From: Candidatus Avoscillospira sp. LCP25S3_F1
GTDB lineage: Bacteria > Bacillota > Clostridia > Oscillospirales > Oscillospiraceae
Direction: 5' to 3'
Length of the DNA stretch: 24,000 nt
NCBI RefSeq assembly: GCF_052117125.1
Contig: NZ_JBQKJT010000001.1
Span: 46,684 to 70,683, forward strand
The notes beneath the pieces were generated by a model that saw only the letters and a program-made list of their open reading frames with translations, was not told the origin of the DNA and did no database searches. How positions within the stretch are numbered: position 1 is the stretch's first letter; every line of letters starts with the position of its first letter. The position numbers were made by a program, and so were the translations under genes. Below, in pieces: positions 4,516-20,816 of this stretch.

Positions 4516-4710
4516 ATGGCAACGCAAAATCAAACCATAGCCCTCTACTCCCGCAAGTCCCGGTTTACCGGCAAGGGCGAGAGCATTGGCAATCAGGTGG
4601 AGCTATGTAAAGAATATGTGCGGCTGCACTTTGGAGAGCAGGCCGCGGAACAGCTGGTTATCTACGAAGACGAAGGGTTTTCCGGCGGCAATTTTGTTGG
4701 GGTAAGATAG
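4516..4710 (+). pseudogene. 5' fragment of a large serine recombinase gene, truncated after codon 60
   Basis: MATQNQTIALYSRKSRFTGKGESIGNQVELCKEYVRLHFGEQAAEQLVIYEDEGFSGGN matches the N-terminus of ORF 18996-20816. Homology stops at 4694 and the frame runs into a stop 5 codons later. Confidence 0.85.
4541..4694 (+). repeat. direct repeat, left copy (partner 19021-19174)
   Basis: 154 nt with one mismatch (4548 c vs 19028 t). 4549-4694 is identical to 19029-19174 (146 nt), at an offset of 14480. Confidence 0.95.
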
Positions 4711-4742
4711 CGTTACCATTTTGGTGCGCTGCCTTACCCCAA
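4697..4742. repeat. imperfect palindrome at the left junction (att-site or terminator candidate)
   Basis: ttggggtaag (4697-4706) pairs with cttaccccaa (4733-4742). An inner acca/tggt pair is centred near 4720. It is followed by ttttt on the plus strand. Confidence 0.6.
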
Positions 4743-4756
4743 TTTTTAGATGTATA

Positions 4757-6433
4757 TTAAATAGCGAAACTCTTTACGTCTGCTCCTATTTGTCTGAAAT
4801 AAGAGATACTTTCAGTTGGGTTGTCGCCGCTGTCAATTCTGCCTACAAAGTTATACAGAATTTCAATTTTGCGGGTGTTCGTTTCTTTGTCAAGTTCATG
4901 GACAAGAATACGATCAATAAACTCATGCACATTTTCGTAGGTCAGTTCCTTAATTTCAGTGTACTTGCGTACCAGCGTGACAAACCTTTTCACATCTGCG
5001 CTGCGCTCGGTGGCGTCGTTGATCTCTTGTGTAAGGTCAGCGATACGCCGGGTCAGCGTCTTTTTTTCATCGTCATAGCCAGAAGTCAGGAAAGCAAATT
5101 GTTCATCAGAAAGTTTCCCTAAAGCATTGTCCTCATACAGCTTTCGGAATAAGACATTTAGCTCGCTCATTCGCTTTTCTGCCTTGTCAAGTTCCTTGCG
5201 CTGTTGTGCCAATGCCTTTTTAGTGGCTTGTGCGTTACATTCGGTGGCTGTCTGGATAAAATCGTCCTCGTTGCTCTGCACATAGGAAAGTACCCTTTGC
5301 AGATCGGCAAGGACAAGTTCCATGACAACGCTCTTGCGGATATAATGCGTGGTGCATACAAAATCATTTCTCGCCCGGTTGCGATAGTTGCCGCAAGTAT
5401 AGGCGTGTTTTCGCTCCGGCGTTCCGGCACCGCGAATAAGGTACAGTTTGTAGCCGCAGTCCGCGCAGAACATCAGCCCGGAAAAAATATCGACTTCCTC
5501 TACCCGTGTGCAGCGGTGGCGGTTCGCCAATCTCTTTTGTGCAAGGTCAAAGGTTTCTTCGTCAATCAGGGCTTCGTGGGTATTCGGGAAAAAATATTGC
5601 TTTTCTTCTGGAATACGCTTTGTTTTTTTTGACTTATAAGATACCTTGTAGGATTTGCCCGTCAAGGTGTGTCCTAAATATTCCTTACGCGCAAGAATGT
5701 CATAAATGGTTTTATCGGGCCAGTTGTACCATGCGTTTTGTTGTGGGCGCGGGTGGCGGCTGCTTCCCGTCCTGCGGTAGCGCAGTTCGCCAACGGTCAG
5801 TATTTCGTTATCCCTTAACCACCGCTGAATATCGCACACGCGCTCGCCCTGCACATACATTGCAAATATCTGTTTAACAACGTGTGCCGTTTCCGGGTCG
5901 GGCAATAAATGATTGCGGTCGTTGGGGTCGGCAATGTAACCATAAGGCACTTCGCCATTGACGCGCTCGCCACGCTGGGCTTTCGCCTGTTTAACTGCGC
6001 GGATTTTTTTAGAAGTATCGCGGGCATAAAACTCGTTAAACCAGTTCCGCAGCGGGGTAAACTCGTTATCCTCCCGCGCGGTATCCACACCGTCGTTAAT
6101 AGCAATATAACGTACTTCATATTCGGGAAAGATAATTTCTATCAATTCGCCCGTTTTCAGATAGTTTCTGCCAAGACGGGAGAGGTCTTTGGTAATGACC
6201 GTTGCCACTCGTCCGGCTTCCACTTCCTGCAACATCGCTTGCAGCCCCTCGCGTTCAAAACTTACGCCGGAAAAGCCATCGTCAACGAAAAAGCGGGTAT
6301 TGAAAAAATGGTGTTCATCTGCGTATTTCTGCAAAATGAGCTTTTGATTTTGTATGCTTTCGCTTTCGCCTGCCTGCATATCTTCCTGGCTAAGTCTACA
6401 ATACAATGCGGTGATCTTGTCTGCCTGTAACAT
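4757..6433 (-). CDS. large serine recombinase, TnpX/TndX-like
   Basis: [25 protein letters not shown] (catalytic Ser region), [11 protein letters not shown], the recombinase domain, zinc-ribbon CADCGYKL...CGNY and a long coiled-coil tail. ATG 6433 is preceded by AAAGGAGG plus 5 nt. Confidence 0.9.
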
Positions 6434-18184: not shown

Positions 18185-18490
18185 ATCAGAAAACAGCTCC
18201 TTCAGGTCTGTTGGTCAACTGGCACTGGTATCGCGCCCCAGCTCTTTTTTTCGTTGTAATTACAACATACAGTTTGCAACTTATCCGATACAATAAACTC
18301 GGAAACAAACATGGGGCAGCGTCAAAGACACCTTGTTCGCTGCTGCCTTCGGAACAGGCTCGGTGACGCAAACGCTGCGCCGTATTTGCAAATCCACTAC
18401 CGATACGACGCTTTGCATAACCATTTTGGGCCTGTATCAGTGAAGGTTAAACCATAAACTATTACTATCACACAACAGGAGGTTCGTTTT

Positions 18491-18823
18491 ATGAACGCTA
18501 AAATGAAAAATATCAGTCAGGCAGAGGTTCTGGTCCTGAAGGATCAAATTGCCTACCAGGACGGCCAGGTGGTCAGCAAGACGTTGGCCCAGAACAATGC
18601 GTTGAGCATTACCCTGTTCTCCTTTGCCAAGGGTGAGGAGATCAGCACGCACGAGTCCGGCGGCGACGCCTTTGTCACCTGCCTGGACGGCGTCGGCAAG
18701 ATCACCATTGACGGCGTGGACTATCTGCTCCATGAAGGCGAATCCATTGTGATGCCCGCCGGGCATCCTCACGCCGTATACGGCGAAGAAGCCTTTAAAA
18801 TGATGCTGGTTGTTGTATTTTAA
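18491..18823 (+). CDS. cupin-domain protein (110 aa)
   Basis: GEEISTHESGGDAFVTCLDGVGKITIDGVDYLLHEGESIVMPAGHPHAV is the two-motif cupin signature. AGGAGG plus 8 nt precedes the ATG. Confidence 0.8.
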   Translation: MNAKMKNISQAEVLVLKDQIAYQDGQVVSKTLAQNNALSITLFSFAKGEEISTHESGGDAFVTCLDGVGKITIDGVDYLLHEGESIVMPAGHPHAVYGEEAFKMMLVVVF

Positions 18824-18995
18824 AAGGTCCATGGAGCGGGCAGCACTGTCAAAGTCCTGCTGTATCTGGGTGTTGCCTGATCGTTTTTCCTATGGCGTTT
18901 TCTGAGACAAGGTATGACACAATCCTCTTCGTATGATCTCTGCGTTATGATATACTTGCAGCAATCTATCACATGCGAGCAAAGGAGGATGAACG

Positions 18996-20816
18996 ATGCC
19001 CAACGAGTCAGATGCCATTGCCCTCTATTCCCGCAAGTCCCGGTTTACCGGCAAGGGCGAGAGCATTGGCAATCAGGTGGAGCTATGTAAAGAATATGTG
19101 CGGCTGCACTTTGGAGAGCAGGCCGCGGAACAGCTGGTTATCTACGAAGACGAAGGGTTTTCCGGCGGCAATTTGAACCGTCCGGCCTTCCGGCGCATGA
19201 TGGAAGCGGCCCGGCAGCGGAAGTTCCAAGCCATCATTGTCTACCGTCTCGACCGCATCAGCCGCAATGTCAGCGACTTTTCCGGCCTCATTGAAGAATT
19301 GTCTCGGTTGAATGTTTCCTTTATTTCCATCAAGGAGCAATTCGATACCAGCACCCCCATGGGCCGGGCCATGATGTACATTGCCTCTGTCTTTTCCCAG
19401 CTGGAGCGGGAAACCATTGCCGAACGCATTCGGGACAACATGCAGGAATTAGCCAAAACCGGCCGCTGGTTAGGCGGTACCACCCCCACCGGCTATGCCT
19501 CCGAAGCCGTCAAAAGCGTGACGGTGGACGGCAAAACGAAAAAGGCCTGCAAGTTAAAGTTGATTCCCGAAGAAGCGGAAATCATCAAAACCATTTTTGA
19601 CCTGTATCTGGAAACGGATTCTCTGACCATCACCGAAGCTCGGCTGATGCAGCGTGGAATTCAGACGAAAAGGGGCAATCATTTCACCCGCTTTTCTATC
19701 AAGTCCATTTTGCAGAACCCTGTCTATCTGATCGCCGACCAGGAGGCTTATGATTTCTTTCAGCAGCATGAAACGGACCTGTTTTCTGAGCAGAGCGAGT
19801 TTGACGGTATCCACGGCATAATGGCCTACAACCGTACCGACCAGGAAAAGGGTCGGGCCACCATCTATCTGCCTCCCAGCGACTGGATTGTGTCCGTGGG
19901 CAAGCATCCAGGGTTGATTCCCGGCAAGGCCTGGGTCGCCGTTCAAGAGTCTCTGGAGCGAAACAAATCGAAAGCCTTCCGCAAGCCCCGCAGCAATGAA
20001 GCGCTGCTGACAGGTCTGCTCTATTGCCGCTGCGGCGAACGGATGTACCCCAAGGTCAGCAAGCGGAAAACCGCCAACGGCAGCCCCGTCTATACCTATG
20101 TGTGCAAGTTGAAAGAGCGCAGCCAGCGCGCCCTCTGCAACAACAAAAATGCCAGTGGCAATCTGCTGGACCAGGCCGTTCTGGATCAGCTGAAGCTGCT
20201 CCAGGAGGATCAAGATACGTTTCTCGCCCAGTTGGAACAGAGCCGCAAATTCTACACCGGCAACCGTATGGACTACGAGCAGCGGCTGGATGCCCTGCGG
20301 GGAGAAAAACGTGACCTGGAAAAGAAGCTGGACGCTTTGGTGGATTCCCTGGCAGACCTGGCCGAGTCCGCTGCCCGCGGTCAGGTGTCCCGGCGTATCG
20401 AATCCCTCAGCAGCCAGTGCGACGATCTGGGTAAACGGATTCAGGAGTTGGAGGGGTTGACCTCCCAGCATGCCCTCAGTGATCTGGAGTTTGATCTCCT
20501 GCGGCAGCTGCTGGCTGTTTTCCGGGACGGCATGCAGGAAATGTCCCTGGAGCAGAAACGGGCTGCGGTTCGCACCGTGGTACGCAAAGTGGTCTGGGAT
20601 GGCATCCACGCCCATGTGGTACTGTTTGGCGTGCCGGATGATGAGATTGAATACCCGCCGTTCCCCTCCGACGGTTCTGACCCGGACGGCAACGATACCG
20701 ATGGCGAAACTGACGAACCTTCCACCTGCTCCGATGATGACTACGCAGAAAATCCATCGAATCCCGATGACTCCACCGACGGTACAAAAGCGCATTGGGG
20801 CGGGAATAGCAAATGA
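18996..20816 (+). CDS. large serine recombinase adjoining the sigK fragment (SpoIVCA-like role inferred)
   Basis: IALYSRKSRFTGKGESIGNQ, YRLDRISRNVSDF, the recombinase domain, zinc-ribbon CRCGERMY...YVCKLK...CNN, a coiled coil and an acidic tail. AAAGGAGG precedes the ATG. The stop codon lies inside sigK-homologous DNA. Confidence 0.9.
   Translation: MPNESDAIALYSRKSRFTGKGESIGNQVELCKEYVRLHFGEQAAEQLVIYEDEGFSGGNLNRPAFRRMMEAARQRKFQAIIVYRLDRISRNVSDFSGLIEELSRLNVSFISIKEQFDTSTPMGRAMMYIASVFSQLERETIAERIRDNMQELAKTGRWLGGTTPTGYASEAVKSVTVDGKTKKACKLKLIPEEAEIIKTIFDLYLETDSLTITEARLMQRGIQTKRGNHFTRFSIKSILQNPVYLIADQEAYDFFQQHETDLFSEQSEFDGIHGIMAYNRTDQEKGRATIYLPPSDWIVSVGKHPGLIPGKAWVAVQESLERNKSKAFRKPRSNEALLTGLLYCRCGERMYPKVSKRKTANGSPVYTYVCKLKERSQRALCNNKNASGNLLDQAVLDQLKLLQEDQDTFLAQLEQSRKFYTGNRMDYEQRLDALRGEKRDLEKKLDALVDSLADLAESAARGQVSRRIESLSSQCDDLGKRIQELEGLTSQHALSDLEFDLLRQLLAVFRDGMQEMSLEQKRAAVRTVVRKVVWDGIHAHVVLFGVPDDEIEYPPFPSDGSDPDGNDTDGETDEPSTCSDDDYAENPSNPDDSTDGTKAHWGGNSK
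19021..19174 (+). repeat. direct repeat, right copy (partner 4541-4694)
   Basis: See the left copy. Here the repeat is part of the intact recombinase gene. Confidence 0.95.

Follow-up and report, generated by a model that had tools for sequence, protein, structure and literature searches.

A duplicated recombinase gene start in Candidatus Avoscillospira as the probable scar of nested mobile elements

In Bacillus subtilis and Clostridioides difficile the sigK gene is interrupted by an intervening element (skin and skinCd, respectively), which is excised by a large serine recombinase, SpoIVCA in the first case and CD1231 in the second (PMC5025042). Recombinases with a DUF4368 domain make up the multi-targeting TndX-like clade, and in one analysed example their target sites share a TT core (PMC10083194). 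There are also precedents for the nesting of mobile elements, such as a CTn1-like conjugative element inside skinCd and the mobilisable transposons Tn6104-6106 inside the conjugative transposon Tn6103 (PMC3158075). Here we describe a 24,000-nt stretch of DNA (the window), located on a 323-kb contig of the isolate genome of Candidatus Avoscillospira sp. LCP25S3_F1, in which a 14.5-kb unit lies between two direct copies of the 5' end of a serine recombinase gene. This unit is probably not a single element with a target duplication, but the composite scar of four nested mobile elements: a skin-like element (R), a truncated conjugative element (T), the remnant of a group II intron and a second, small member of the R family (R').

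The direct repeat, already recognised in a sequence-only reading of this DNA, pairs positions 4535-4694 with 19015-19174 (160 nt, 2 mismatches, 98.75%) and has an exact core of 146 nt (4549-4694 = 19029-19174). Its left copy is, as had been described, a promoter-equipped stump (MATQNQT...), and its right copy belongs to an intact 606-aa recombinase gene with an MPNESDA start and a different upstream region. Once 14,480 bp are removed, the window aligns to positions 5517-9220 of contig L020 as a single high-scoring segment pair (96.5%), which means that the window holds an insertion relative to R. The predicted empty site, a single recombinase gene without insert, occurs in more than 10 independent contigs. 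Ten unrelated ones (L019-L028) each have one uninterrupted MATQNQT recombinase gene, preceded by the same toxin-antitoxin module as in the window and followed by the sigK 3' half. All 10 of these R copies are 100% identical over the 146-nt segment and over the opening ~260 nt of the recombinase gene; the identity of the two repeat copies is therefore uninformative about their age, and so are single-nucleotide polymorphism patterns in the repeat.

The sequence-only reading had overlooked a further repeat pair (3254-3586 and 17853-18184; 333 nt, 88.6%), located some 1.2 kb upstream of the respective copies. Its presence implies that the repeat copies belong to two homologous modules, each consisting of a small conserved segment, a variable cargo and a recombinase 5' end; the cargo between the conserved segments is a YafQ/RelB toxin-antitoxin pair on the left and a cupin gene on the right. 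This is not the pattern of a target-site duplication made by staggered cuts: the 160-nt repeat runs into divergent but homologous upstream sequence, and serine recombinases exchange strands at a 2-bp core. The direct repeat has no other cause than the homology of the two genes and the fact that the left one stops where T starts.

T occupies 12,977 bp (4695..17671, minus strand) and is 91-96% identical to the integrative and conjugative element (ICE) loci L001-L018 up to exactly 17671. Its large serine recombinase (558 aa; 4757..6433, minus strand) has the Resolvase, Recombinase, Zn_ribbon_recom and DUF4368 domains (Pfam E-values 3e-22, 5e-20, 2e-12 and 3e-21, respectively) of the TndX/TnpX-like clade. 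The identical 558-aa protein is found on 8 other contigs, where T ends 62 nt past the recombinase stop codon (...CTTACCCCAACAAA) and a different sequence follows on each. Read outward, each flank is the 5' end of a serine recombinase gene; six different such genes are represented, broken without exception after DDG(Y/W/F)(S/T)G(T/G/A)N, at ...AAY-TT, and a diverged T relative (L124) adds a seventh stump with the same break in yet another recombinase gene. Beyond the stumps the flanks are unrelated to one another. An identical recombinase thus stands beside six different flanks, and every target is a serine recombinase gene. Seven stumps broken at one motif (D-G-x-S-G-x-N|TT) show that T inserts site-specifically into the catalytic-domain motif of the serine recombinase genes of other elements; a limited literature search found no published account of such a specificity.

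The seven aligned junctions read ...AAY-TT|TGTTG(G/A)GGTAAG, the T left end bordering the core with TGTTGGGGTAAG in the inward direction, and the TT at 4693..4694 (plus strand) is accordingly the putative crossover dinucleotide of the left junction, attL, as judged from left junctions. The suggestion that 4694 is a crossover point has thus held up, the breakpoint 4694/4695 being the site-specific junction at which seven stumps are broken at the same codon. The R site that matches the target is GAAGACGAAGGGTTTTCCGGCGGCAATTTGAACCGTCCGGCC, and an intact target site persists in the right-hand recombinase gene (19140-19185, plus strand), in the region of the second repeat copy. The insertion of T in the recombinase gene of R means that the excision enzyme of the resident was disabled. 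A search of viral_contigs with the T left-end sequence gave 0 matches. In the recombinase gene of T itself (window 6240-6290, minus strand) the equivalent site reads …GGCGTAAGTTTTGAACGC, and GGCGTAAGTTTTGAA just 5' of the core departs from the target consensus GGNNNNAAYTT(T)GA; this deviation may reflect self-avoidance.

The struck element, R, is represented to the left of T by its right-hand part upstream of the recombinase gene (2984..4515, plus strand; 96.4-96.6% identical to L019-L028). Here we find the conserved 333-bp module (3254-3586, plus strand), the YafQ toxin (3780-4070) and RelB antitoxin (4067-4354) genes, identified with Pfam on the minus strand, and a strong sigma-70-like promoter from the promoter scan (4449-4476, plus strand; TTGAAA-16-TGnTATAAT, 11/12). 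The promoter precedes the stump (4516..4710, plus strand), which comprises 59 codons (MATQNQT...EDEGFSGGN) and five read-through codons from T (FVGVR*) and is annotated as a 64-aa hypothetical protein (MGO5113466.1). On the far side of the insert the intact recombinase gene abuts the sigK 3' half (20812..21171, plus strand; NCBIfam TIGR02846 positions 111-226/227, E=8e-35), the chromosomal target of the R family, whose open reading frame (ORF) begins 2 nt ahead of the recombinase stop codon. The junction between R and the chromosome is at GCAAATGAAATCC (20809-20821), and a copy of the R-family attachment core CAAATGAAAT (20810..20819, plus strand; attR) overlaps the stop codon (20814-20816). 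R thus splits sigK, with a serine recombinase gene adjoining the junction. The sigK 3' half also follows the recombinase gene in L020 and L034-L039, and distant relatives of the recombinase likewise lie directly upstream of it, with differing downstream genes, defence-type cargo and several host contexts. Since the recombinase 3' end adjoins the sigK 3' half in the relatives too, R is a skin-like sigK-intervening element, and the 606-aa recombinase appears to be the counterpart of SpoIVCA/CD1231. Further downstream, the chromosome (21332..24000: a ferredoxin-like gene, an HxlR/ArsR regulator and a PfkB kinase) is collinear with L020 and 91% identical to it, compared with 96.5% for R (2984-4694 and 19015-21169). 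The higher similarity of the element than of its flank indicates that R is mobile between hosts and is consistent with its horizontal spread among related Oscillospiraceae.

Several other features of the R family were apparent. The 333-bp module is 83-91% identical across R, R' and all R relatives; it contains an ORF of ~70 codons without family match, ends in a terminator-like hairpin and delimits on the left an exchangeable cargo slot that precedes the recombinase gene. The first part of the window (1-2983) has no homology to R in any other contig, and its three ORFs (159, 249 and 271 aa) gave no Pfam or NCBIfam match; at this position other R contigs have a STAND NTPase, RepA_N and MobA_MobL. 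The left end of R itself falls beyond the window and beyond all the contigs retrieved. In L019 and L021-L026 a second element of ~6.5 kb, with a 530-aa serine recombinase and a 66-bp copy of the sigK end, sits deeper in the sigK 3' half (window equivalent 21104-21169), so that sigK is doubly interrupted by two different recombinase elements. In many gut contigs (L120-L123; proteins P0309-P0329), finally, the break in an R-family recombinase stump falls two codons earlier (...EDEGFS|LPKRCRNAKSPRR), and the stump is directly followed by a complete gene for a 227-aa sigma factor (regions 2 and 4) and then dnaX-recR, and still other R-family stumps terminate at ...ED|ATVIIGLKQNPT. Events of several kinds have repeatedly broken the R-family recombinase gene in this stretch.

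At its other end T is incomplete. The homology of the window to all 10 relatives that reach this point (L009-L018) stops at exactly 17671, shortly after a 156-aa ORF (17096-17566), past which the relatives continue with Cys_rich_VLP, TTRAP, an ArdA-containing giant protein, topoisomerase III, CHAP, VirB4, TrbL and VirD4. In L012, a contig with the identical recombinase, conjugation genes likewise follow the equivalent of 17671. Of the functions expected of an ICE, the window copy has a MobC/NikA-like protein (13929-14306) and a MobA/VirD2 relaxase (14267-15610), both on the plus strand and identified with Pfam; VirB4, TrbL, VirD4 and CHAP are in the relatives. The T of the window is thus a truncated remnant: what is, in full, a conjugative element of ~30+ kb here lacks its type IV secretion module and its right end. 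A protein search with the CHAP fragment, aimed at the right end of T, returned only short, non-identical proteins, and a metagenome scan with the same fragment reached 80 loci extending to VirB4, TrbL, VirD4, PcfB-like and RepA_N-like genes, with no element end among them. When these loci were searched by tblastn for recombinase 3' remainders, only three full-length recombinases and one cut by a contig end were found, all in differently organised elements.

Past 17671 the window continues with what is left of a group II intron, its 3' end with domains V-VI (17672..17762, minus strand). The Rfam RF00029 match (17728..17648, minus strand) scores 46.1 bits against a gathering cut-off of 40, and the T-family loci L052 and L056 contain sequences that match 17676-17767 at 87-92% identity. 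Both homologous copies in L052 coincide with RF00029 matches, one of them within a complete intron (D1-D4 and reverse transcriptase (RT) ORFs). In the window neither D1-D4 nor an intron RT was found, the 5' part and the protein gene being absent. Class C group II introns insert after terminators, and in T the insertion point comes after a hairpin and a run of T, a short way downstream from the Cys_rich_VLP gene. Given that the intron 3' end is at 17672, 17671/17672 is an intron-exon boundary and not a deletion joint. We had considered it as an illegitimate deletion joint, with 17672-17765 as a target arm, and dropped this on the Rfam and L052/L056 evidence; the idea that 17672-17768 is a sigK 5' end was rejected after translation by eye, with no tool run. 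The real novel joint is instead 17762/17763, where intron sequence (...CTCCAAAT) gives way to GAAATACTATTATCGCCGATGGG... at the left end of R'.

Between this joint and sigK the R-family attachment core recurs. The 10-mer CAAATGAAAT occurs in the window only at 17763 and 20810 (0.11 expected), and its first copy (17763..17772, plus strand) is followed, all on the plus strand, by a putative P'-like left arm (17773..17852; ~79% identical to the sequence directly after the recombinase 3' end in L030-L033), the second copy of the 333-bp module (17853..18184; small ORF and terminator hairpin), a Cupin_2 cargo gene identified with Pfam (18491..18823) and the 606-aa recombinase gene (18996..20816), in which Pfam recognises the recombinase and which includes repeat copy 2. 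The whole (17763-20819) looks like a 3.05-kb R-family mini-element between two cores, with the intron of T as its left neighbour and sigK on its right. Its putative attP sequence is …GGGAATAGCAAATGAAATACTATTATCGCCGATGGG…, and the corresponding putative pseudo-site in the intron is …AATCAGTCACCAAATTTAAGTTTTATATTATTGC…; an R-family recombinase is the most likely author of the joint. The recombinase gene is itself chimeric: the upstream region and first 7 codons (MPNESDA) are novel, and from codon 8 onwards it is identical to R. Its closest relative (P0001, 98%) has the MATQNQT start of the left stump, and MPNESDA resembles the N-termini of distant family members (MRENEDA, MPQNEDV). Such a mosaic fits a second R-family member. 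As for R elements elsewhere, L030-L033 have one at a non-sigK locus (L030 8340-8612), in which the recombinase lacks its stop codon and reads through to 690 aa (P0002) into the same ~75-bp sequence as the left arm of R'; this arrangement may be attP-like, a tandem remnant or a secondary site.

These observations are best accommodated by two related elements, one of which was struck by T, and a subsequent deletion, and we consider this history probable. The sequence-only reading had listed such a rearrangement of two related elements among its three options, and it is the best fit, R' being bounded by two R-family cores; homologous recombination, listed separately, possibly operated alongside it. 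The order that we infer is as follows. R, with its 606-aa recombinase at the right end, would have interrupted sigK, and T would then have entered the recombinase gene at the TT core, leaving the 59-codon stump (4516-4694). At the time of insertion T would have had a group II intron on the downstream side of its Cys_rich_VLP gene, and the attP of R' would have joined a pseudo-attachment site in this intron, most likely through an R-family recombinase. From there, either R' integrated into T, and homologous recombination between its recombinase gene and the 3' remainder of that of R deleted the interval, or a tandem R-R' array existed in which recombination in cis between attP and the pseudo-attB did so. 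Either route would remove the 5' part of the intron, the conjugation module and right end of T, and the 3' remainder of the R gene, and would leave a dead stump together with an intact recombinase gene next to sigK. Selection to keep an intact SpoIVCA-like gene in a spore former plausibly played a part. As had been foreseen, the repeats are a substrate for RecA, and RecA-mediated loss of the unit would regenerate the empty site.

Several points weigh against this history. It concerns one genome only, and an independent copy of R' (MPNESDA, cupin) was not found in the databases searched, so that R' as a free-standing element is something we infer. The left-arm role of 17773-17852 is suggested by one comparison (L030-L033). 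The pseudo-site in the intron and the sigK attachment site appear only weakly similar outside CAAAT, making microhomology-mediated illegitimate recombination equally possible for the 17762/17763 joint. The genuine right end of T lies outside the recovered loci, and a recombinase stump may therefore be present there. As regards the searches, exact look-ups of the 606-aa recombinase, the 567-aa TTG-start T recombinase, the relaxase and the stump gave no match. A degenerate DNA pattern for MPNESDAIALYSRK had 0 matches in genome_contigs and 0 in metagenome_contigs, and the left-arm motif of R' had 0 in genome_contigs. The MPNESDA chimera was absent from the 90% cluster and from two DNA collections; the 59-aa stump query returned only short proteins and is hence uninformative about such chimeras. 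For the cupin the sole exact match was a 969-bp unitig; it comes from Logan run SRR33888784, which is also the source of L008.

The final map is also exactly that of a single-crossover (Campbell) integrant. A 14.48-kb circle, formed elsewhere and consisting of the R' left arm, module, cupin, promoter and 5' stump joined to T from its left end up to the intron remnant, could have entered the recombinase gene of R by RecA-dependent crossover in the 146-nt segment; the gene would never have been inactivated, and the circle, with its MobC and relaxase, could have been mobilised in trans. The 100% conservation of the segment among R elements from more than 10 samples would make it a ready landing pad, and Logan unitigs end 30 nt into the repeat on both sides. 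However, recombination would have had only 146 nt to act on, which is short, the unit has no recognised replication gene, and the databases yielded neither a second copy nor a circle junction. This scenario further requires a prior T insertion in an R' gene with an identical 5' segment, as well as an extra circularising event, and we regard it as rather unlikely.

An assembly artefact seems less probable still. The repeat exceeds usual k-mers and is about one read length, the Logan unitigs L008 (ending at 4665) and L029 (18090-19058) do break off 30 nt inside it, and all four edges fit either pairing, so the true genome could have an intact R gene and a separate molecule or locus joining the R' upstream region, the repeat and the T left end. 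On the other hand, paired reads normally resolve a 146-nt repeat in a 323-kb isolate contig, the other pairing yields a closed 14.48-kb circle without a recognised replicon, and recombination would interconvert the two forms anyway.

Least probable of all is the option, which the sequence-only reading had likened to the way phages treat tRNA 3' ends, that a promoter and recombinase 5' end are built into the right terminus of T to rebuild its target, the window T being internally deleted with both true ends kept: that the incoming element hits recombinase genes, at a fixed codon, is borne out by the seven stumps, the rebuilt gene is intact and in frame, elements integrating into genes often bring a replacement gene end, and the right end of T lies outside the recovered loci, but the replacement part is unsupported, since the first ~20 kb of the 10 T relatives, whose right ends are beyond reach, contain no such module and pass from 17671 into conjugation genes, an intron remnant separates T from the module in the window, and the supposed right end bears R-family hallmarks, opening on the attachment core of another element family, having 333 bp 89% identical to R, carrying a 5' coding segment that is 100% R-specific where the other targets of T are unrelated recombinases sharing only the motif, and having no MPNESDA counterpart in the collections searched.

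The body of T also carries a diversity-generating retroelement (DGR; 8357..13399, minus strand), identified by Pfam and repeat comparison. On the same strand it comprises Avd (13010-13399), a template repeat (TR; 12842-12963), an RT (11484-12632) and a 1049-aa SLH-anchored target protein (8357-11506) with the variable repeat (VR; 10755-10876). TR adenines account for 18 of the 21 TR/VR mismatches. The VR lies in the N-terminal DUF6273 domain of the target protein (about aa 210-250) and not at its C-terminus; InlB B-repeats and three C-terminal SLH domains are also present. The RT ORF has 382 aa in the window and 492 aa in the gene calls of L001-L003, where it extends through the TR. Between Avd and MobC there is a (TCTG)n microsatellite of ~19 units (13543-13620), and contigs L001 and L002 stop near the equivalent position, which suggests length variation. 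T further holds sigma-like/helix-turn-helix genes and regulators. An Rfam pemK RNA motif (6809-6889, minus strand; 53 bits, cut-off 34.8) also lies in T and has a small ORF and the recombinase gene downstream of it.

As a by-product of nested, related mobile elements the repeat is unremarkable, and the targeting specificity is of more interest. T brings a defined specificity to the multi-targeting DUF4368 recombinases, which are under development as genome-engineering tools, and its insertion is a possible form of conflict between mobile elements in gut Clostridia. Here T has struck the gene for the excision enzyme of an element that interrupts sigK, in a gut commensal that presumably forms spores, and this bears on how sporulation is kept intact. 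Elements of this sigK-intervening family, with their defence, toxin-antitoxin and mobilisation cargo, are widespread across gut metagenomes. Speculatively, the T family might be conjugative elements that home into the recombinase catalytic motif of their rivals, the duplicated arrangement being an escape route through recombination with a second element and the 14.5-kb cassette persisting as a mobilisable hitchhiker. If so, insertion would disable the resident integrase and immobilise rivals, in skin-like elements it would threaten sigK reconstitution and sporulation, and a cassette with a DGR, a relaxase, an intact recombinase and a 146-nt flank invariant across R elements would be a recombination-dependent hitchhiker.

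How, then, does this locus compare with the known systems? Like skin and skinCd, R interrupts sigK in mid-gene (profile position ~111-113) and has a large serine recombinase beside one sigK half. In contrast to skin, R and its relatives hold plasmid-like or mobilisation genes (MobA_MobL, RepA_N), toxin-antitoxin genes and defence cargo, not prophage remnants, and in the window the recombinase gene of R has itself been struck by another element. The intron remnant resembles terminator-targeting bacterial group II introns in its minus-strand domains V-VI and in its position downstream of a gene, where a hairpin with a U-run immediately precedes the insertion site; unlike them it retains only the last ~90 nt. 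Campbell integrants and paralogous-gene direct repeats likewise place a truncated and an intact gene copy around foreign DNA and offer a substrate for RecA-mediated loss, but the left boundary in the window is a site-specific recombinase junction and not a homologous crossover. The T recombinase shares its domain architecture with the TndX/TnpX-type DUF4368 enzymes of Tn5397 and Tn4451 (Durrant et al. 2022), and like their elements T is found at many loci, apparently with a TT core and without a long duplication; however, all seven of its targets are of one gene kind, hit in the serine recombinase catalytic motif and not at a relaxed AT-rich motif. Finally, the CTn1-like element in skinCd and Tn6104-6106 in Tn6103 are equally cases of a mobile element within a mobile element, a skin element included, but there the intruder does not sit in the recombinase gene of its host element.

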